A stretch of 63,486 nucleotides of DNA, counting the filler, from Reticulomyxa filosa (Eukaryota > Protista > Foraminifera): the NCBI GenBank assembly GCA_000512085.1. It is 23 parts of 23 records of this genome, joined end to end, with 100 filler letters (N's around TTAATTAATTAA, not from the genome) between each part and the next. Parts side by side here need not be neighbours in the genome. Positions count along the whole stretch, not along the records: positions 28,925 to 30,387 come from ASPP01015245.1; 22 more parts are not named here. One strand, written 5' to 3'. This document shows, piece after piece, positions 17,571-63,486 of the stretch. The notes beneath the pieces were generated by a model. It saw only the letters and a program-made list of their open reading frames with translations, was not told where the DNA came from and ran no database searches. The translations under genes and the position numbers were made by a program. Within the stretch, counting starts at the first letter, position 1; the number at the start of each line of letters is the position of its first letter.

Positions 17571-17606
17571 CATTAGGATAAAAAAGAAAGTTGACACCTT
17601 ATAGAG
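17571..17606 (+). mobile_element. Truncated Tc1 TIR fragment (subtype II)
   Basis: TA-CATTAGGATAAAAAAGAAAGTTGAC-ACCTTATAGA matches the element end at 29978 (CCGTAGGATAAAAAAGAAAGTTGAAC...ACCTTATA) with an internal deletion. Confidence 0.6.
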
Positions 17607-19139
17607 ACTATTGTGTTTCTACATATCACTCACAAATTAATGTAATGTTATAACGTTTTCACATGTACCTAAAAGATAGATTAGTTGCTATTGAAGCATG
17701 TCGTGATTTAGATTTCACAAAAGGCGATTCTTGTGATTTCTTGCAACCTTGCAAAAGCAGATGCAAATATTGCGAAGTAGTGAGTTGCGAGAACAAAATG
17801 TTTATAATATAAAACGAATAAAAGCATGAATATAATTTCGAAATTGGAAATTGTATTATTTTTTGTGGGAGATCAAAGAATTAGTAATAAAGCAAGTTAA
17901 TGCCAAAATGTCGGACATTATGTTGTCATTCAGCGCAATAGTCCAGTAAATTTTAAAATAAAAAGTAACAACGGAATTGAAAAATTTTGCATATATCAAA
18001 GCTGAAGAAAATAAATTCTCAACAGGAGCAAAAAGAACAACAACCATTTTTATTGGATTACTGGACAAAATGCCACCTTCATTAGAACCATCTGGTAAAT
18101 CACCACCTTAATTGAAGCCGATAAACACTTCCGAAGATATTGAAATCTTTGAACTGCAAGTGTCGAAAGCCAAGTAGGGACACAATCAAAGAAAAGATCT
18201 CAAATAACAATTAAGTTATTTATTAAATATATTTTTAAGATATACATTTAGATATGTACTTGTTATTTTGTATCCTTTCTTTGAAAAAAAGCAAATCATT
18301 TTGTTTGAGTTCACAAGGAAAGGCCTATTGAGTGTTTTGATTGTTCCACTTCAGTTTTTTTTTGTTTTTTGTCTAACTATTAACTACAAAAAAACTGCGT
18401 GAACTTAACAAGTGTAGGACAAGTCCCTATTATGAGTATCTGAACGTCAAGGGAACAGAGGAATCCCCAGTAGGTTAAACTTCCTCAATAAACTGCTTCT
18501 TACTTTATTGCTTTTCTTTACTTTTCTTTAGTTATCTTGTTTTATTAATTAAATTTCTTTCGTTTTACGAAATCCTTATTCTCTTCTTAGTAAACACCTC
18601 TCGTATTACAGTTAGTGTACCCACACAAGACTAAAAAAAAATCTGGTAAAGACAATTAATATTGCAACCCTTTTAAAATGTTTGGTAATACTGCTCAAGG
18701 TATTGTCTATCATCAACAATGAAAAACCACTTTTAGAACTCAATCAGTCTCATTTTTATTTGATTTATTCATTGTTTGTTTTTGTTATTCTATACAGTTA
18801 TTTATTTAAAATAAAAAAATAAAATCACTAAATCAGGATGAATTGCAAAATATAAAAACAAAAACTATTTATATGGAGTAAAAATTGGTTTAATGATAAT
18901 TCAAAAATTATTTTAAAAATCATGTTTAGTTGGATATTTTTCATTATTATTTATTTCAAATACATTCTTGATCAATTAACAGCATTCCGCTTTACACTAA
19001 GAATACATTGTTACCTTTGATGAGATTATTCTAAAATAANNNNNNNNNNNNNNNNNNNNNNNNNNNNNNNNNNNNNNNNNNNNTTAATTAATTAANNNNN
19101 NNNNNNNNNNNNNNNNNNNNNNNNNNNNNNNNNNNNNNN

Positions 19140-19298
19140 AAAAAAAAGTTATTAAAAAACTAATTTCATATTTAAAAACTACAAGATTTATAGATATTTA
19201 AAAAAAAAAATTAGATCTAAATGTTGATTTTTCATGAGAAAATCAATTATCATCATATGATATCGTTTTAGGCGTTCAGTTTTCTTTGCAACCTACTG
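19140..19298 (-). mobile_element. Tc1-family element end (TIR subtype I plus subterminal region), inserted at a TA
   Basis: Ends ...GATATCGTTTTAGGCGTTCAGTTTTCTTTGCAACCTACTG-TA. Closely similar to 42937-43067 and to both arms of the 30024-30134 MITE. Confidence 0.85.
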
Positions 19299-19300
19299 TA

Positions 19301-19889
19301 TTTGCTTCAACGATCAAATTTTGTTATTTTTATTATTGCATTTTCGGTAAGTGGTGCTACTCGTTTTTTATAAGCATGAACCCTTTTATCATCACCTTTT
19401 AAATTAATTTTGCTTTCATTATATAAAAGCTCTTTTTCCCAATTATCGAATGTTAATCACTTGTACTTCTTTGCAAAATCAAGTCTTATTATTTTTAAAA
19501 TAGTCTTTTCTTCAAAGTATCTGTTTTTCCGAAGCATCCTGGTTATTGCTGCACATGAAATGAAAAGACTAATCGAATAAGGTTTTGCTTTTACTTCTTC
19601 AGCTGTAACATATTTGCCAGTAACAATCAACAGTCTAACAAGACGTTGAATTTGTTCTAGTACTTAAATGATTTCAAATATCGAACTATACTGAATTTAA
19701 AAAAAATGGACAAAATATTGAAATAATTAGTAAATATTTAATAAAAAACCAAATTCAAAATTATATTTAAAAACTACATGATTCGTAGATATTTTTAAAA
19801 ATAGTTCTTGACGTTGTCTTTTATGAAGAAAATCAATTATCCATATAAGGTACAGTTTTATGTTTCAACTTTACTTATTTGTAGTACTG
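19301..19889 (-). mobile_element. Decayed Tc1 transposon, 5' part (TIR subtype II plus transposase fragment)
   Basis: Minus-strand translation of ~19660-19301: LEQIQRLVRLLIVTGKYVTAEEVKAK..ISCAAITRMLRKNRYF..IRLDFAKKYK*LTFDNWEKELLYNESKINLKGDDKRVHAYKKR..IIKITKFDR*S. This matches the Tc1 second HTH and the SDESK first-aspartate region. TIR ends in ACTG at 19886-19889. Confidence 0.88.
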
Positions 19890-26800: not shown

Positions 26801-27084
26801 CGAATAATGATATGATATGGACGTCGACACAAATGGTACAAGGCAAATAGCCATAAAATGAAAGACACCAGATGATGGATTAACGGATGACATTACGAAG
26901 AAAGCAAAGCATCAATATTCGACGTTTCATGTTGTATTATACAGCTCAAGTATGCAACAAAACGAAGAAAAGAAGATTGATGAANNNNNNNNNNNNNNNN
27001 NNNNNNNNNNNNNNNNNNNNNNNNNNNNTTAATTAATTAANNNNNNNNNNNNNNNNNNNNNNNNNNNNNNNNNNNNNNNNNNNN

Positions 27085-27122
<38 letters not shown>

Positions 27123-27194
27123 AAAAAGAGGATGTATACGTAGTATTACACACAGACCCACTTTCTTTCAAAACTTTCTTTCAAAAAAAAAAAG

Positions 27195-28725
27195 GATCGG
27201 TGGTGGCAAGCATGGGCAACAGTATAGTAATGGCAAATGTGGTCGGACAAATGAGTAGCTTGTCGTGGAATTGTGAGGAGGGACTGGATTTGAAAGTCGA
27301 GTCTCGCGAAAAATCGTGGTCCAAAGGATACATCCCAGCGAACAATCAACGCACTGACACGGGGATATCCGATGCAGAGGTGCTGTTGTCCCGAATGGTC
27401 GATCGTTCCATTCGTCCACTCCTTGGAAACAGCAGCAATTCGAAAGTAGCCAGATTCTACAATGTCCAAATTAGCACCACCTTGTTGTCTAATGACAATC
27501 AATATGAAGCTTCTGTTTTGGCGTTACGTACGACTATCTTTTGGTACTTTTTATTTTAGGATGGAAGCGAGTTGTATTATTTACATAAATAAATAAATAA
27601 ATAAATGTATATATATATATACATATATATATATACATGTATATGTGTATATATGTGCATGTGTATATTTGTGTGTTGGTCTGAAGAATTAATGCAGCTA
27701 GCGCAGCAATGCACATGTCAGGCGTCCCTTGGGATGGGCCAATTGGAGCTGTTCGTATTGGATATTGTGATAATGCCTTACTTGTCAATCCTAGCGACAC
27801 TGAGCTTCGCAATGTTAACATATACATATATACATATATACATATATACATATATACATATATACATATATACATATATATATATATGTGAACAAATTGT
27901 GTTGATATAAATCTCTCCTATTAAAACAAATAAAATTTAAAAAAAAAAGTCATCGTTGAATTTGCTGTATGTCGGAAACGCGGAGAACACGGTAATGATA
28001 GAAACAGACGGAAAAGAGGTGCCCGACGAAACGTATTGCGAGGCATTGCGATTGGCGCAAAAGTCGATAAAGCCTTTAATCGACGCGCAGCAGATGTTGT
28101 ACAAGGAACATTGCAAGTCATTTACGCAGTTTGGCTTGCAGATGCCGTCGTATACTAAATTCGAAAAGGAAATGAAAGAAGTGGAGGCCATCCAAAACTC
28201 CATTCGAAGTTCCACACTCGTTAACTCCATCCAATCCACCTTTCAATCTATTTATACCAATTATGAGTTGACCAAAGTTTCAAACTTTATTTATCTATTT
28301 ATATTGCTATATTCTCTTCTCTTTTTTTTTTTTTTTTTTTTTTTTCTTCTTCTTTGTTGGATAGAAAAAAGAAAAAAACACTCCAAACTAACTGGAACAG
28401 GCAAGTCGAGGAAAAATGGCGGAAGAGGCAAGAAAGAATGGAATTACATCGATCAATGAATACCTAACGACGATATCGGAATCAAACCCTTTAATCAAAA
28501 CATTGCTTGAAGATGAGAAAATGGCGTGGGTAGTCAATGAGCTGGTCTACGACATTGAAAAAGAGACATTCCGAAACCTGTTATTTTTTGGAGACCAAAG
28601 ATGCGACGGTCGCAAGTTCGATCAAATCAGACCTTTGAGTTGTCACGTTGATGTTTTGCCTTCGTCCCATGGCTCTTCTTTGTTCCGAAGAGGCAACACA
28701 CAAGTTAAAACTTTACAATATATAC

Positions 28726-28767
<42 letters not shown>

Positions 28768-28824
28768 GTGTGTGTATATGTATATAATGATATGCTGTTT
28801 GTTTTAGTAGTCTTGTGCACGACG
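27195..28824 (+). CDS. PNPT1: Polyribonucleotide nucleotidyltransferase (PNPase, probably organellar), internal fragment
   Basis: Exons 27195-27522, 27687-27813, 27950-28276, 28401-28703 and ~28811-28824. Motifs [51 protein letters not shown] and [35 protein letters not shown]. Confidence 0.93.
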
Positions 28825-28959
28825 NNNNNNNNNNNNNNNNNNNNNNNNNNNNNNNNNNNNNNNNNNNNTTAATTAATTAANNNNNNNNNNNNNNNNNNNN
28901 NNNNNNNNNNNNNNNNNNNNNNNNTTTTTTTTTTTTCAAACCAATCAAAAAAAAAGTAC

Positions 28960-29439
28960 CTTTATTGCAGGAACCCAGCCATATCCCTGTTGTGGTCTGC
29001 GTCTTGCCTTTCATTGGATCCATCACTGCAAAGCGACATCCAAAGCACAAATTCAGCAGTGTTGACTTGCCAGACGACTGTGGACCCATAATTGATATCA
29101 TTGCGTATTGCCCAAATTCATCTTTGTTGTCATTCTCCATTTGTCTTTTTACAAGTGTTGCTAACTCATAACTCTTTCGCTTTTCATTCTTCAACGTTGG
29201 TTGATTACATAAATTACATGCTTTCAACAACTCGATAAACTTGTCCTCGGTTGCACTTTTTATTTTTGTTCGTTATTTTTATTTTTATTTTTTGCTGATT
29301 TTTCAAATGTTTAAAAAAAACAATTTTCGGGCTGTTCCAATTTTCAGAAACACTCGACACACCAAAATGCCAATGTGCCAGCATTCTTTGGATCTGACTG
29401 CACAATTTGCAGATGAGAAGACTGAATTTCTCTTGGCAT
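28960..29439 (-). CDS. SEY1: Sey1/RHD3 ER-fusion GTPase, first two exons (3'-partial)
   Basis: [27 protein letters not shown]...QTTTGIWL is the RHD3/Sey1 G1/G2 signature. ATG at 29439, exon 29439-29363, intron 29362-29256, exon 29255-28960. Confidence 0.88.
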
Positions 29440-29977: not shown

Positions 29978-30290
29978 CCGTAGGATAAAAAAGAAAGTTG
30001 AACACATAAAATGCCACCTTATACAGTTAGATTGAAAAGAAAACTGAAGCATAAAACGATATCTTAATTGATTTTTCATGGAGAAAATCAATTAAGATAT
30101 CGTTTTAGGCTTCAGTTTTCTTTGTAACCTACTGTAGATATGATTATGTTTCTCCATGAAAAAACAACATTTAATCAAAATTTTTTTATTTTAAAAAATA
30201 TCTAAGAATCTTGTAGTTTTTAAATATCATTTTGGTTTTTTATTAAGTCTTTCCAATTTTTTCCAAAATTTTAATCTTTCATTTGATTTG
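29978..30290 (+). mobile_element. Tc1-family element left end (TIR subtype II) hosting a nested MITE
   Basis: TA-CCGTAGGATAAAAAAGAAAGTTGAACACATAAAATGCCACCTTA[insertion]GATATGATT...AATCTTGTAGTTTTTAAATATCAT aligns with the reverse complement of ~63290-63486 and ~19720-19889. Confidence 0.85.
30024..30134. mobile_element. 111-bp palindromic Tc1-derived MITE with TA target-site duplication
   Basis: CAGT...ACTG termini, 52/51-nt inverted arms around an 8-nt spacer (TCATGGAG), flanked by TA at 30022-30023 and TA at 30135-30136. Confidence 0.92.
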
Positions 30291-30496
30291 ATAAAATTCC
30301 TTAAAAAAAGTTGACAATCGTATTTTTCTCGTATTCATGATTTGCCAATCTTTTTTAATAATTTTTAAGATTTACCTTTTTTTTTTTNNNNNNNNNNNNN
30401 NNNNNNNNNNNNNNNNNNNNNNNNNNNNNNNTTAATTAATTAANNNNNNNNNNNNNNNNNNNNNNNNNNNNNNNNNNNNNNNNNNNNGAACGCAGC

Positions 30497-30629
30497 AAAC
30501 AAAAAAATAACGAAAAAATAAAAGGAAAAAAAGAAAAGTTAAACTATGGGCCATGCGGCACTCCGTGCCGCCTGGTCCATAGTTTAACTTTTTTTTTTTT
30601 CCTTTTATTTTTTCGTTATTTTTTTGTTT
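30497..30629. repeat. 133-bp near-perfect inverted repeat (65-bp arms, 3-nt loop)
   Basis: Arms 30497-30561 and 30565-30629 are reverse complements with 3 mismatches. GC-rich core GCGGCAC-TCC-GTGCCGC. Confidence 0.95.
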
Positions 30630-33234: not shown

Positions 33235-34707
33235 TTTATTCTTGCTTTTTTGAATTTGAATATATCCAGCCTCTAAAAAAAACGATTGAATTCGTAACTT
33301 ATTCACCCTGACAATAACACCTTTCAAAATAGGCCCAGACTTGCTACCATTCATTGTTCCTCCCGCCCAAAAAGACGAAAAATAAATCCAGTATAGGGAC
33401 CTGCATACAAATTATTCATTAAATTTTTGGAGGATTCAATCATATTATATTGTAAATTGTGTAAAATGTTCATTTGTTCTTCGTCACAAGGTAAAATGAT
33501 TCGTTTTGGGAATTTCAAATTTTATTAACAATTGCAATCATTCAATAAACACGCAAAAAGTATGTGGCATATGAATATACTTCATTTGCTCGAATATGCT
33601 CCACTATGTGAGCAAATAACAGTACCAGCATTCAGCAAACACACGTATTGAAATCAATTATGTTTTTTTTTCATACATTCGTGCAATGCTAACAAATATC
33701 ATTCGTTTAACTTATTTACAGAGTGGTATTATCAAATCAAGTCAATTACATCTCATTGTGCAATAACAAAAATGGAACAAATTGATAAATAGTTCAAAGC
33801 AAAATGTTAAAAAAATTGAAATACAATTGCAAAATTCTATTTGGAGATATTCAATTGAGATTTGATACGAAAAAAATAGAAGTAAATACATTGGATGACG
33901 AAATTATTGATAAATATATTGGAGGCACATGATATATTTACAAGAATTCATAAAAATCTAAAAAAGGTGTTTGAACAAAGAAAGTCTACATACTTTACGT
34001 GCGAAGGAAATTATAGAATATTTTTACTTGTGAGAAATCTGGTCGTTGACACATTGAAATGTTTAAATGTATTGGCAGATATATAGATTAATCATATGAA
34101 AATATTGATGGAGCAATCACTTCAAAAAGTAAAACTATCTTCAAAGAAATATTTGATCTGATTAAGGAGTAAATGAATGGAAAAGATTTAATTACACCTT
34201 GAAGATAAGGATTACTTTATGTCATTAAATAAATCACAAAACCAGGTTTGGTTGATCAAGTCATATATTTAGAAATGATAAAGCAAATTGTCAAGATAAA
34301 TTCTTTTTTTAAATAATATGCATCCTTGAGAATTCAAAAATGCATTTAATTTTCTACACTTTATTAAAAACTAAGTATATTCGGTAATTTGGATGGCGAA
34401 AAAAAACATTTACACTTTTTGATTGTAATTACCAACTTAATAAATGTAAAATATTTTCTTCAGAGATTGCAAAAATATTTAAAAGTTAAGATAAAACATT
34501 CTGAATATTTAACAATTAGTGACGTTTAGCCAATTCTAATTTTTGATTGTCTTAAAATTATACTGTAATTTATTTGGATAATCATTATTTTGATTACCTA
34601 AAACATCNNNNNNNNNNNNNNNNNNNNNNNNNNNNNNNNNNNNNNNNNNNNTTAATTAATTAANNNNNNNNNNNNNNNNNNNNNNNNNNNNNNNNNNNNN
34701 NNNNNNN

Positions 34708-36240
34708 AATCAAACAATTATTTTTTATCACTTCATGTAGCAGTTTCTGTAATTGTTTGCTTATTTTTACCTTTGTATTTACTATGTCTTGAATATGTTT
34801 GAGTTTGTGCAAGTCAGATTCATACAATAATGGATTGAAGTTAGTTTTTCGATTTAATGAAATAGAAATATCTTGAATTGGAACACTTTTTGGTATATTT
34901 CTTTTAATTTCAATTGTGCGTTTGTACGGTACCATGAAATAGTAATCTATTTTCCAATAAACTTGAATAATTGGATAATGGGGAAGATGTTTGTAAATAT
35001 CGTGTAATAATACATCTTCATTACCCATTTTTGATAATAGCTCTGGTTTACATCCGTTAAATTTACATTTAAAATATACTAGCTCATCGCATCCATCTCT
35101 AAAACGATTTCTCACTTGCAATTTATCCTTTAAATGTTGTATTCCATATTCAAAAGTCACTGAATATGGGTTCAATGGCTCTTTGAGTGTTTCTTCATAG
35201 TCCCCTTTCCAAATAACACGGAAAGAGTTGAATTCCTGTGTATTTTTATATAAGTGTACAATTAACAATTGACAAAAAAGTTAGTATTTTTTTTGCTTTC
35301 ATTAACTGATAGACAACTTGATAAATTTTCTCTATCACCCCAATTAATTGTACGGAAGTGCCAAGTATGATTGAGGATGAGACAGGCCCATTTGGTATGT
35401 GTTTGATTAGTATCAAAATGATTATACCATTGAATATGTACATTGAATTCCAATGATAATTTGTTTGGATTTCCGACTTGTAATGATTTGATTTTTAATT
35501 TATTTTGATCAAATAACATTATTGTTCGCGATGTTCATAATCAAATACACTTTGATAATCTTTCCATTTTCCATTCCATAACATACACAATCTTCCTGGA
35601 ATAAGATATCTTGTTTTATATCTATTTAAAATGATTGGTTATATCATTTGTTTTATTTATACAGCAAAACAAACACATATATATATATATATAACCAATA
35701 CATGATTTGTTCGTTGATAAGTTCTCGATAGCTTTCCCATAGATATAATACTTGAATGCAATCATACTGATAATACCAATTATCATCATTTCCTTTTTTT
35801 GAATCCAAGTTGTTGCAAATATACTTTCATCTCTTCAATCATTTGCTCGAGGTCTAGATGGCATTTTAAAAGTAATTTGTTATATAAAGCTTGTTTGTTA
35901 ATTTGCTGATATTTGATATATTTAGGATATTTCAAAATATTCCATAAAATATGCAAACGCATTCTTCTCAATACTTTTAATTCTTTCAATCTATCATTTA
36001 CAAATTTTATTTTACACTTATGTTTCATATTTGTTGTATGCTTCATTCGTATTAACTCATTCAAATTGGAAGTTGCACAAATTTCTTGTAATTGTATTCG
36101 TGTATCAATAAAAATTTGATTGTGATTTTTCCATGTTTTCAAAATAGTCGTTTTATCAATTTTATTACCAAAACTTTCTAATAAAATCATTAAATTTTGT
36201 TGCTGTTCGGAGGTTATGCTATATTAATGTTGCTGACATT
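34708..36240 (-). CDS. PUB-like-domain protein of an expanded family, N-terminal part (frameshifted, possibly a pseudogene)
   Basis: LHILWNILKYPKYIKYQQINKQAL..MKVYLQQLGFKK is PUB-like. Continues through ORFs 35519-35262 and 35268-34708. Frameshifts near 35795 and 35525. Confidence 0.6.
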
Positions 36241-42936: not shown

Positions 42937-43067
42937 ATTTAAAAACTACAAGATTTGTAGATATTTAAAAAAAAAAAAATAGGTCTAAATGTTGACTTTT
43001 CATGTAGAAAATCAATTATCATCATAAGATATCGTTTTATGCGTTCAGTTTTCTTTTCAACATAATG
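42937..43067 (-). mobile_element. Tc1-family element end (TIR subtype I)
   Basis: ATTTAAAAACTACAAGATTTGTAGATATTT...GAAAATCAATTATCATCATAAGATATCGTTTTATGCGTTCAGTTTTCTTTTCAACATAATG-TA closely matches 19170-19300. Confidence 0.85.
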
Positions 43068-43399
43068 TACTATACATAAATACTTATTTCTTTTCATAAT
43101 CATTATATAACTTTATTATATATTTGCACTATATTAATACATTTATGTCTATTATAGTCTTAGTCAATATATATTAAAACTTATCAAATATATTAACAAC
43201 TTTTGATATTGTTCTAAAATTGTAATTCGTAAATCTATTTAAATTAATATTTGTGTTTAAGTTTAAATCTAATTTGCATTCAGTTACAAATTGGAATAAT
43301 ATTGTTTGTGATTAATTTTTTACAAACACTTATTAACTCTTCGTCAAGATTATGTGAAAACTTTTTCTTATGAAATAAAAATGAAAAACACAAGTTTTG

Positions 43400-52791: not shown

Positions 52792-53848
52792 TCAGAAAGA
52801 GATATTAAGGAAATTATTAATCACTGGATTCGAATTTTAAACATTAAATTAGGATGGATTAATGATTTTGATAAAATTGTTGTCAGATATGTTATGTTTT
52901 TGTTTTCCTTTTATATATTAATTAACAATATTTATTAATGACAAATAATTAATATTGAACATACAGACAAGACATTTTAAATTATTAAAAGTCTTTCATG
53001 GACATGGCAGTAAAATAAATAGCGTGCGATTTTCAAAAGACAGTCGAATGATTGTTTCAGCATCACATGATAACACTGTTAGAATATGGGATGTTAAATC
53101 AGGAAAACAGATTCAAATATTCAAAGGGCATTCTTCTTGGGCCCACTGTGCAGAATTTTCACCAGACGGAAACACAGTTGTGTCTGGTTCAATGGACAAA
53201 ACAATTCGATTATGGGATGTAAAATCAGGAAGAGAATTGATGAAATTGGAAGGGCATTCGCAGTGGGTATTAGGTGTAAACTTTTCTCCAGATGGTAAAA
53301 ATATTGCATCATGTTCAACTGATAAAACAATCCAATTATGGGATGTGAATACTGGGAAAAAATATCAGGAACTAATAAGTCAATCAAGTGTATTGGATAT
53401 ACAATATTCACCAGACAGTCAAATGATTGTATCACGATCTGACAGTAAAAACGTTGGTTTATGGAACATAAAATCAGGTGGAAAACTGAAAGAATTAATA
53501 GGACATTCAGATACTGTAATGCGTGCAAAATTTTCTCCAGACGGTCGGTTCATAGTATCTTGTTCAGTGGACAATACAATAAGGATATGGGACGCAGAAT
53601 CAGGAAGACAATTGAAAATTTTGAAAGGACATGCAGATATTGTAAGACATGTGAAATATTTTCCAGATGGTCAAATTCTTGTATCATGTTCAAAGGATAC
53701 TACAATTCGTTTGTGGGATGTAAAAACAGGAAAAGAAATACAAAAATTAGAAGGACATTCAGGTGTGGTTTTATGTGTCGATGTTTCAACAGATGGAAAT
53801 ATAATTGTGTCCGGTTCTGAGGATTGCACAATTCAAATTTGGAGATGA
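52792..53848 (+). CDS. WD40-repeat protein (7 blades) with a conserved leader exon
   Basis: Seven GH..FSPDG..IVS.S.D.TIRLWD-type repeats. Exon 52792-52890 (IINHWIRILNIKLGWINDFDKIVVRY) joins 52967-53848 via a phase-0 GT-AG intron. Confidence 0.95.
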
Positions 53849-55691
53849 CACAAACTTACAAATCTTTTGCAAAAAAAGCATTGTAAAATATCATATTATA
53901 GAGATAATTGATTTTTTCCCACGAAAAATCAAGCTTTAAGCAAAATCTTTTTAAAAATATCTCAAGTAGCTTTGATTTTTCATTTTATCTTTTAGAAATA
54001 TTCAAAATGTAAATCTTTAATCAAAGTGTTGATAAGTTTTGCTTTGTATCTACAGTATATATACGCATTTTCAAATACAGAGTTTACAAAAAAATTTAAA
54101 TCAGTTATAAATATTTTCAATGATTTTAATAATAAAATTGATGTTTACGTATTTGTTTTTCAATGTTTTTTATAAATTTAATTTGAATTTTTTGTGTGTT
54201 TCAAATTTGTTTTATTTATTTGCATATATAAAACATAATACTTATACTATTTTAAATGTACAAAATTTCTTTTAAAAGGCATTTTTCACAGTTTTTTGGG
54301 GCTTTTTTGCTAGATTTATCATATAATATTGCAAATACAATTTTTGTTTAAATTAAACAAATGATCTAAAAAACAAATTTAATAAATAAATAAGATAGTG
54401 TTTAAAAAATTAGGACGAAATGTTTGCTTTTCATATAGAAAGTTGATTATCTTCATAAAGTAGTATAATAGGTGCATCATTTTTTTTTTTTGCAAACTAC
54501 TGCACTTGAAAATGCGTATACATATATGTTTTTCTAATTGTGAATGATAATAAATCACTTGTGTTTTCAGAATACACTGAATTGTAAACATATTGATCAG
54601 TGTATCGTCTTCTGTTGTGTTTTGAGCAAATTGCAATAGAGGTAACAATATATTAAACACAAGACAAAAAGTTACATTGTAAAGAAACAAGACTATCAAA
54701 TCCAACAAATGAAAACCAAAGAAAGTTTTTTATTACGCACTGGATGCATTCACGTCTTAAGATAACAAGACGTATACTCAAAAAATGACCAGCTCAGAAA
54801 ATAACACAAAAAAAAATATCGCTTGAAGCACAAATAAAAGTAATAGCGTGTTTCATCATTTACACGTTAAAGCTGCATCTGACGTTGGAAGTGTCAAAAA
54901 AACAATAACTTTTAACAACTTTGGTCAGCAAACTGTTGTTTGGTAAAAGAGTAGATGGCCAAAGTTAACTGTAGATAAACAAAATCTCCCAATATCACTA
55001 CGATGAGCAGCATTCTATTGGGCCTACTTACTATTCCTAAATGGAACTGACGATTTATCTGTCCCCTTTTTTACACTTAAAAAAAAGAAAAGGCAGAAAT
55101 GGTAGAAAAAATGTACGACAATGAAGGAAATTAAACGAAAAATTTGAGCAGTGGAAAAAAAAATTAAATCATAGCCACTAGAATTGTAGGATCACGAGCC
55201 GCCGGCCTGTCAATTGGACATTGTACTAAAAAATGGACAATTCAGACTGTCCATTGTTTTATTTATTTGTTTTTGTTTTTTTTTGGGCTCAAAGCGTCTT
55301 TAAAAGAGCAAGGAAATGAAAGAAGGAGAAAAAAGGACAGAGGGGGTGAATTGTTCTTTTCGCTTTTTTTTTTAGCCAGCAACGTAGTGATCACATGTAT
55401 TTTTGTTATTTATTTTTTAAAAAAAAAGAGGAAAAAAAAACGCATAATAAATTGTGTAGGCTTGACATCTGCCTTTTTTTTTTCCTCAAGAATGTTTAGC
55501 GATGTTACGCAATTACGAGTGGTTCAATTATGACATTAAAAAAAAAAAGGGGAGATGCCCCTGAAATTATTTTGGGGATACATTAGGAACAATAAAGTCT
55601 TCCCAAACCAACCACAAAAAAAAAAAAAGGACAAATAAAAAAAAAAACAAATAAAAAAAAAATGCACAAAATGTCAAACCATTTTTTTAAC

Positions 55692-61095: not shown

Positions 61096-62626
61096 NNNNN
61101 NNNNNNNNNNNNNNNNNNNNNNNNNNNNNNNNNNNNNNNTTAATTAATTAANNNNNNNNNNNNNNNNNNNNNNNNNNNNNNNNNNNNNNNNNNNNCAATC
61201 TGTTGCAACTACTCTCAAAGCGAATGGAGCATTGGCTTGCCGAATTTCAATGTTTCACGAACTTGCAAGTTTGCCCGCACTTTCAAATCTTTCAGTGTTT
61301 GCAGAAATTGAGTAGTGAACAGTGACTTTTGCAGTCGATGGCCAATAATTCTGTTTTCACAACCATATCGTTCGTCTGCTTCGTCGTTTTTTTTTCACTG
61401 CTTTTGGTATTTGATTTAGTCACCAATGTATATACACATATCAAACACACAACACATAAACATGTTGGTATTTGTCCACGATTTGATCAAAGATACTCTC
61501 CAATTAGGTCGTTATCAATCCACGTTGTTTAATCCATGCGCTAGATTCGTGAAAACCATTATTTGCTGTGGGTTCAGTTGGCTTTTTTTTTTGACAAACA
61601 AATCAACAGAGTTTTCATATCCATGTTCACGTCATTGATTTTCTTCAAACAAATATATATATTATATATATTTATATAAGGTAAGATATTTGCGACACTA
61701 AGGAATGCATACAAACATTGGATAAGACAAAGAATGTCAGTGAATTAAACGACAAATAATGTCCTACACTTTGCTTCATTCAAGGACGACAAAAGCATTC
61801 GAACGAGTTTTGCGATTTTTTCTTCGGACTTGCTGTTGAATTAAGTCTTTGGTGTTACAATCGAGCAAGCGATACTGTCCTACTCAATGTGCATATAATG
61901 CACATGATAAAGTGAAGGGGATCAACATTACTTCGATGCAGAATGACGGATCGTGTTCGTATTTACATTGGCAGAGTTGTTCATGCATTGCGAGATCGAG
62001 TGATCCTTGGAAATACAGGCTATCATCCATTAGTTATTACTGCAAGGATGATACGTGTATTGAGAGTTTGCACACATTGTTGAATTGATTGGAGATTATC
62101 ATCATTCTTCATTTGCAGTTCCACCACCTTCACTGCTCGTCGATTTAACATATTCCAGTTGTTGTAAAAACAAAAACAACAAACAGCAAATTAATTCAAA
62201 TTGTTTAAAAAGAAAGACAAAAATAATAAATATTTTTTTTAACTTTAATCTTCTTTCAAGTGCATTCGGATCAATAAAGCCTTCCAATCTTACTTAACAA
62301 CTACAAATTTAAAATAAAAAATATAAACTATAATTTCAAATTTAATNNNNNNNNNNNNNNNNNNNNNNNNNNNNNNNNNNNNNNNNNNNNTTAATTAATT
62401 AANNNNNNNNNNNNNNNNNNNNNNNNNNNNNNNNNNNNNNNNNNNNGCAGAATTTAATGTTATTTTTAAAATTTTTGCATTGTGAAGTCACAATGGTTTT
62501 TGACTAATGTTTGCTTTATCTGTACTATCATTCTTTTTTCTTTTTTTTTTTGTCCAATGCCAAACAAGTCAAGCTAATTCAAAAGCATAAAAACTAAATT
62601 TTATTTTGTGGTAAAATTGAACATTA

Positions 62627-63229
62627 TCATTTGGTTAAATCACTTTTTGCCTTGTGTACTGCTTGTATTCTATCTGGCATTGAACTTTGTTAAGTTTGTG
62701 CATGTATATTTGTCAATTTTTTCTAATTCTAATTCAAATTATTTCTAAAGTTCTTCTTTTGATCTAAATGGTTCATTTTTGAATATTTTTGTTTTCACTA
62801 TCCACTACATATTTTCGATTTGGTTCAGGTCCGGAGAATTTAGATTGAAATTCGATATGTTGATAGCATTTTGTTCAAACTATTCTTTTGCTGTAATTGC
62901 TGTGTGGCTAGTTGCATTATCTTGCTGAAATATCCAATCTTTATTGTCTTCTAAGCATCAATTAATGCTTTTTGAGCATTTCATCACCTAGGACTTCTTT
63001 GTAAATATTTTCATTGACACATCAATTAATGTTATATTCATAACCAGGTCCTAACACTACAAAGCAAGACCACACGATTATGCTTCCACCACTAATTTTT
63101 GATGTTTTTATGATTGAACGTCAGCTTCCATTTACGCACATATTCATGACTTACACGAAATTTTTTTGCAATTTTGAGCGAACTCCAGTGATAACGCAAC
63201 AGTTCAACAGCACGTCTTTTTAAAATTCT
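62627..63229 (-). pseudogene. Tc1 (DD34E) transposase pseudogene, internally deleted
   Basis: RRAVELLRYHWSSLKIAKKFRVSHEYVRKWK (HTH) // KTSKISGGSIIVWSCFVVLGPG..NENIYKEVL..DWIFQQDNATSHTAITAKE*F..NSPDLNQIENM*WIVK..SKEEL*..SMPDRIQAVHKAK. There are 34 residues between the D of QDN and the E of IEN. Confidence 0.95.
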
Positions 63230-63486
63230 CAATAATTAAAAAACTCAAATATCGAACTACGTTGAGCTAAAAAAAAAAGAAAAGAAAAATGAAAGATAAA
63301 ATATTGAAATAATTAGTAAAGATGTAATAAAAAACTAAATTCAAAATGATATTTAAAAAGTACACGATTTGTATATATTTTTTAAAATAAAAAAAAAATT
63401 AGGTCTGAATGTTGTTTTTTCATGTAGAAAATCAATCATATCTATAAGGTACCGTTTTATGTGTCAACTTTACTTTGCATTCTACT
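62627..63486 (-). mobile_element. Decayed Tc1 transposon with its 5' TIR (subtype II) at the window end
   Basis: The transposase remnant is preceded by a subterminal region and TIR (63245-63486) homologous to 19675-19889 and to the reverse complement of 29978-30290. Confidence 0.9.

Follow-up and report, generated by a model that had tools for sequence, protein, structure and literature searches.

The locus analysed here raises the question of how a short, nearly perfect palindrome with Tc1-type termini came to lie inside the end of another Tc1 transposon, and whether it represents a mobile miniature element (MITE) or the collapsed remains of a longer one. We use the term window for the whole stretch of DNA that was analysed, 63,486 nucleotides of AT-rich eukaryotic DNA from the foraminifer Reticulomyxa filosa, interrupted by 22 gaps of 100 letters (e.g. 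30388-30487), each with the same 12-base linker, with stops in all frames. The palindrome was delimited by its ends, its fold and the alignment of its arms:

30024-30134 (111 bp, no strand assigned): near-palindromic Tc1-derived miniature element
30022-30023 (no strand assigned): left TA of the target-site duplication; the empty sites have only one TA
30135-30136 (no strand assigned): right TA of the target-site duplication

The terminal inverted repeats of this element begin with CAGT and have a TA on either side, and between its two arms there are 4 differences over 51 aligned sites and one 1-base indel. Its predicted fold has an energy of -39.3 kcal/mol, against a mean of -7.4 for shuffled versions (z -15.3), none of the 200 shuffles folding as stably. 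The TA-to-TA boundaries, the arm alignment and this fold bear out the claim of an earlier note on this DNA, which had described a 111-bp palindromic Tc1 element, and its reading of the TA duplication and the CAGT ends as those of a Tc1-type insertion also holds, a single TA being found at the empty sites. For comparison, TACAGT is present near the start of 13 of the 36 inverted-repeat pairs that were viewed by eye from a set of 80 metagenome Tc1-like loci. No ORF of at least 90 aa is listed over 30024-30134, and the arms of this non-coding element align to the ends of transposase remnants, which is the relationship that characterizes a MITE. The description of two TIRs fused head to head has to be narrowed: the element is indeed a near-palindrome, but its arms are the outer portion of much longer common ends, not complete TIRs, and its centre, previously taken for a spacer, is not new but a hairpin that the parent end already contains. 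We consider 30024-30134 to be a real, decayed Tc1-derived miniature and a candidate Made1-like MITE. This copy is decayed by now and likely inactive, and nothing points to a function in the host cell.

A hairpin scan of the whole window returned six matches: four (AT)n repeats, the 111-bp element, and a second, unrelated palindrome of 133 bp at 30497-30629. The latter, which begins 9 nt past a gap, has low-complexity A/T arms matching at 93% and a GC-rich hairpin core that is not repeated elsewhere in the window; it may be a further miniature element or an artefact of the contig edge. With regard to the surrounding genes, a fragment of an RHD3/atlastin-like GTPase gene (28925-29272, minus strand; Pfam E 6e-13) lies ~750 bp from the 111-bp element, and the spliced-looking ORFs at 27041-28787 (plus strand) may resemble polynucleotide phosphorylase, going by a sequence motif. 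Further away, a member of a lineage-specific multigene family is found at 34705-35280 (minus strand; 42 relatives, 41 of them labelled Reticulomyxa filosa, the best at 98%), and a repeat protein with 126-bp repeats, WD40-looking by eye, at 52949-53848 (minus strand).

The element is placed ~45 bp inside an older Tc1-type end, which it divides into two parts, and the uninterrupted version of the insertion site is preserved elsewhere in the window:

29978-30021 (plus strand): outer part of the host type A Tc1 end
30137-30294 (plus strand): inner part of the host type A end
63434-63450 (minus strand): paralogous empty site, exact 17-mer

Excising the 111-bp element together with one TA recreates a 17-mer that occurs once in the window, 6e-5 occurrences of it being expected by chance. 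The flanks share 80% identity over ~200 bp with the copy at 63434-63450, which lies on another contig, so that the empty site is paralogous and not allelic. An insert at the same alignment column is absent from all 7 other ends compared. The nesting in a relative's end, as formerly proposed, is thereby confirmed, with a type A Tc1 end as the host; regarding the empty site, the exact restoration of the 17-mer stands, but its position had been given off by one.

At least 8 related ends, not counting the two arms of the 111-bp element, are carried by the window, and they split into two subtypes, A and B. A profile built from 5 of these ends recovered those 5 plus 2 more, and the end at 17571 came from blastn. 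Besides the host end, they include:

63284-63486 (minus strand): type A end upstream of a transposase remnant, tip cut by the window edge
19699-19886 (minus strand): type A end of the 19301 transposase remnant
17571-17624 (plus strand): short type A end, the nearest to the host tip, also an empty site
19140-19298 (minus strand): type B end, with its TA at 19299-19300, inside the type A transposase remnant and running into a gap
42937-43067 (minus strand): type B end, with its TA at 43068-43069, running into a gap
53884-53973 (plus strand): decayed older end of the same family
54404-54491 (minus strand): decayed older end of the same family

Type A includes the host end (29978) as well as those at 63486 and 19886, both upstream of transposase remnants, and type B those at 19298 and 43067, each flanked by a TA and each entering a gap, so that their visible lengths are at least 159 and at least 131 nt. 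The ends are alike over ~180-200 nt, the distance from the tip at which the likeness of the host end to the other A ends runs out, and no copy displays both ends. The TIRs of IR/DR Tc1s measure about 200-250 bp. No inner direct repeat of the IR/DR kind was detected in 10 direct tests on 5 ends (lowest p 0.12), of low power given that the ends are decayed and both B ends cut by gaps, and since there is also no element with both ends, we do not claim IR/DR membership. The 19301 remnant is interrupted by the B end at 19298, whose inward direction points away from it. Nesting of B in A is thus seen two times (at 30022 and 19299), as expected if B is the younger. Type B would likely represent a younger wave than type A, which points to two waves of Tc1 activity in this lineage.

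Once the two subtypes are distinguished, the arms of the palindrome can be assigned to one of them:

30024-30075 (plus strand): left arm, the terminal 52 nt of a type B end; closest to the 43067 end (3 of 51 sites differ)
30066-30134 (minus strand): right arm, the terminal ~69 nt of a type B end, loop included; closest to the 19298 end (2 of 51)

The arms show 2-5 differences over 51 sites from the type B ends at 19298 and 43067, whereas 14 of 51 sites differ from the host end and 9-14 over 48-50 sites from the other type A ends. In the tree, the arms and the B ends form one clade (support 96/97), within which the four B-type rows are not separated. With type B arms in a type A host, the element must have come from elsewhere and is no local copy of its host. 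Each arm is moreover nearer to a different B end (2-3/51) than to its partner arm (4/51), which speaks against a fold-back artefact of the assembly. At arm sites 11 and 29, an A is common to the left arm and the 43067 end, and a C to the right arm and the 19298 end; this in-phase sharing at 2 of the 4 arm differences has a rough, post-hoc p of 0.002-0.03, depending on the mutation model, and favours two separate ends, while speaking against a chimera. The 19886 end aligns ambiguously at site 11, where a left/right dimorphism common to A and B was considered. Both arms carry a 1-nt and an 8-nt deletion, and both long B ends are without them. The 8-nt stretch lost from both arms is homologous to the insertion spot in the host end (30012-30150), which may be chance or reflect a TA-rich hot spot.

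Two decayed transposases are visible in the window, both of them behind type A ends:

62630-63135 (minus strand): decayed Tc1 transposase, catalytic part, with D-34-E spacing
19301-19657 (minus strand): decayed Tc1 transposase, DNA-binding part plus first catalytic motif, from tblastn

The first of these remnants matches Pfam DDE_3 (E 2.7e-7) and, as its only match of solved structure, Sleeping Beauty (E 7.6e-7), and is itself matched by 29 of 29 full-length Tc1-like relatives. Its 34-residue D-to-E spacing was read by eye in one frame, and that of the relatives P0045 and P0047 was computed. A possible HTH remnant, matched only weakly, extends up to ~63240. With a word-based protein search, the decayed DDE piece gave none of 35 candidates, whereas HMMER did recover relatives. 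The second remnant is matched over 19340-19657 (minus strand) by 6 of 29 full-length Tc1-like proteins in tblastn (best E 2.7e-9); it gave no match of its own against Pfam and PDB, and no continuation of it was found left of the gap at 19040. Four of the 8 top relatives are labelled R. filosa, and 2 of those 4 are auto-named Tc1-like DDE proteins, so Tc1 remnants in this organism are, at that level, already on record. The two type A remnants (62447-63486 and 19301-19886) look complementary, different 5' coding parts having seemingly been lost, and there is a weak match (E 0.026) between the stretch at 62464-62547 and the tail of P0046; the element may extend into the gap at 62446.

These remnants, at 19301 and 62627, had been put forward as belonging to the Tc1 that mobilised the palindrome. 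Both are indeed Tc1-type, but their ends are type A, with 9-14 differences from the arms, and mobilisation by that Tc1 is not supported in the form proposed: the arms group with B, and the 19301 remnant is itself cut by a B end. No type B transposase is visible in the window, where both long B ends enter gaps. The mobiliser would likely be a younger, B-type transposase encoded outside the visible sequence, and cross-mobilisation by a type A enzyme is possible.

How two such ends became one palindrome is recorded at its centre:

30068-30075 (plus strand): 8-bp microhomology TTGATTTT holding the join, one stem of the parent-end hairpin
30076-30083 (plus strand): 8-nt loop inherited from the internal hairpin of the parent end

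The hairpin of the parent end consists of TTGATTTT, 7-8 nt, and AAAATCAA, ~53-75 nt from the tip, with TTGATTTT at position 53 and its complement at 68. As the hairpin is self-complementary, a left and a right end share the same 8-mer in direct orientation. The unbroken match to the parent end covers ~69 nt in the right arm, through the loop, and 52 nt in the left one, and the arms overlap in exactly the 8 bases of 30068-30075, with the base of the left parent before them and that of the right parent after them. Joining the 43067 end to the 19298 end yields one microhomology of at least 8, which accounts for 9 of 8281 junctions (0.1%) and gives a 127-bp product. With the 19298 end on both sides, 40 of 8281 junctions qualify, and with the 43067 end on both sides none does, because that copy has changed within the hairpin. 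The length of the element follows from 127 - 2 x (1+8 nt) + two 1-nt insertions = 111. The possibility that the internal hairpin is unusual in itself was considered and rejected, since an 8-bp self-complementary word is found in 424 of 500 shuffles; the informative point is that the join falls inside the hairpin, not the hairpin as such.

We regard the junction mechanism of this Tc1-derived miniature as well supported. As for its complete history, a deletion between the two ends of a younger type B Tc1 at the 8-bp microhomology, followed by transposition as a miniature element, has in our judgement about an even chance of being correct. According to this reading, the excision of a B-type Tc1 would have been followed by an aborted gap repair, and the gap would have been closed by microhomology-mediated end joining, with the complete loss of the interior, to give the 127-bp product. 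The two short deletions of the arms may have already been present in the parent subfamily or may correspond to later events. A type B DD34E transposase from elsewhere would then have bound both outer ends, excised the unit and inserted it at the TA.

A single copy with its TA duplication fits both a MITE and a collapse in place, and therefore cannot separate them. In the latter case, a long type B element residing at this TA would have lost its interior at the same microhomology, with the 111-bp form never having moved and no MITE family being formed. We hold this to be unlikely, even though such a collapse would give the identical junction and TA duplication and agrees with the one 111-bp copy in the window, with the greater lengths of the other two B ends (at least 131 and at least 159 nt), and with the absence of MITE amplification reported for IR/DR-type long-ended Tc1s in the available portion of PMC5224488. 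The two deletions common to the arms and absent from the long B ends suggest instead a separate lineage, and a copy met at random would more probably be a member of a family that had amplified than the product of a unique event. Those same deletions would be accounted for at once, in both arms, if synthesis from a single B end had turned back at the internal hairpin to copy its own arm, and the palindrome so made had then transposed as a MITE. This fold-back predicts the same junction and loop, and template switching, to which the lengthened inverted arms of Goblin are ascribed in the accessible text of PMC3814204, offers a precedent. By our own count, the two-end and the fold-back histories tie at 6 steps each over 4 characters. 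We nevertheless consider the fold-back doubtful, as it needs two parallel changes, in phase, at the sites separating the 43067 and 19298 ends (post-hoc p 0.002-0.03), and as each arm lies farther from its partner arm (4/51) than from another end (2-3/51).

Far less probable than any of these is an origin by a chimera of assembly or amplification, or by a local inverted duplication of the host end, to which we give very little credence. The assembly is fragmented, with the same linker in each of the 22 gaps of 100 letters, and the second palindrome lies 360 bp off, beside a gap. The nearest gap is, however, ~250 bp from the element, whose ends and TA duplication are exact; the arms are non-identical and match other copies at the diagnostic sites, and they are type B in a type A host, against both a chimera and a local duplication. 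The earlier note had itself named a chimeric assembly as what might undo its reading, and this now appears unlikely.

Turning back to the joining of two type B ends with subsequent transposition, its further implications depend on whether the 111-bp element, present once in the window, belongs to a family. The exact type B pattern had no matches in metagenome, viral and prokaryote collections, which are not expected to include the R. filosa genome, and the profile of the ends gave no hit at E 1 against 161 transposase loci. Three short blastn matches among those loci (E 0.017-0.03) were taken as chance. A search of the open literature, going by titles and the opening lines of abstracts, found no described MITE or Tc1 family in foraminifera: in the portions available, the only transposon treated for this group in PMC8101967 is Merlin, and PMC13746701 mentions neither mariner nor MITE. 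Each feature taken by itself, be it a palindromic Tc1/mariner MITE, a microhomology join or nesting in a relative, is already described. What would be new is a foraminiferan long-ended DD34E Tc1 in which a hairpin in the ends programs the collapse to a Made1-sized MITE, which then amplified while retaining no more than 50-70 nt from the outside of each end, an idea that we put forward tentatively and consider unlikely. If true, it would run counter to the reported absence of MITE amplification among long-ended Tc1s like Sleeping Beauty, would show in nature how little end sequence suffices, and would give foraminifera, for which the search found none described, a MITE family. An abundant family would establish which minimal ends a long-ended Tc1 requires, and would be a repeat to mask when annotating the R. 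filosa genome. The locus in any case provides a clean single-locus record of miniature formation, since the same window contains ends of the parental type as well as empty sites; the transposons of this lineage have received little curation.

Among known systems, here taken from the available portions of the cited papers, the nesting resembles that of Stowaway-like MITEs in carrot, rice and maize, where TA insertion into the same or a related family is common (PMC3695323), a likeness drawn by description; those are plant families of known high copy number. The ends recall Minos, Sleeping Beauty and Tdr1 in the DD34E spacing (seen in the type A remnant), the TA target, the CAGT start, and a conservation over ~200 nt, long TIRs being known in the DD34E transposon Minos (PMC7325037). 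Contrary to the IR/DR elements Sleeping Beauty and Tdr1, no inner direct repeat was detected in the R. filosa ends, with low power. Sleeping Beauty moved MITE-like substrates at ~10% efficiency, and Tdr1 is described as being without MITEs, both in the consulted part of PMC5224488.

Closer in their formation are Gnome, Elf and Goblin, which derive from Ozma of Aedes aegypti and are likewise Tc1/mariner miniatures with microhomology joins; in the excerpts of PMC3814204, these joins, together with that of Made1, occur at 6-8 bp of microhomology and are ascribed to aborted gap repair plus end joining. These three elements keep internal sequence of an identified autonomous parent, whereas the 111-bp element keeps none, and its microhomology stems from the own hairpin of the end. 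The closest counterpart is Made1 (MiHsmar1), a human 80-bp MITE from Hsmar1 that, as far as the cited portion of PMC1784062 goes, is a near-pure palindrome with few central bases, having two 37-bp arms around 6 bp, and is reportedly preferred by its mariner transposase; its copy number is put at ~8000 in the accessible text of PMC5224488. Both are made of two end segments totalling ~100 bp, with a Tc1/mariner parent and a microhomology join (PMC3814204, in part). The differences are that the parent of the 111-bp element is Tc1-type (DD34E) and that of Made1 a mariner, that the arms of the former cover no more than the outer portion of ends whose conservation extends over 131-200 nt, and that its loop is inherited from the hairpin of those ends.
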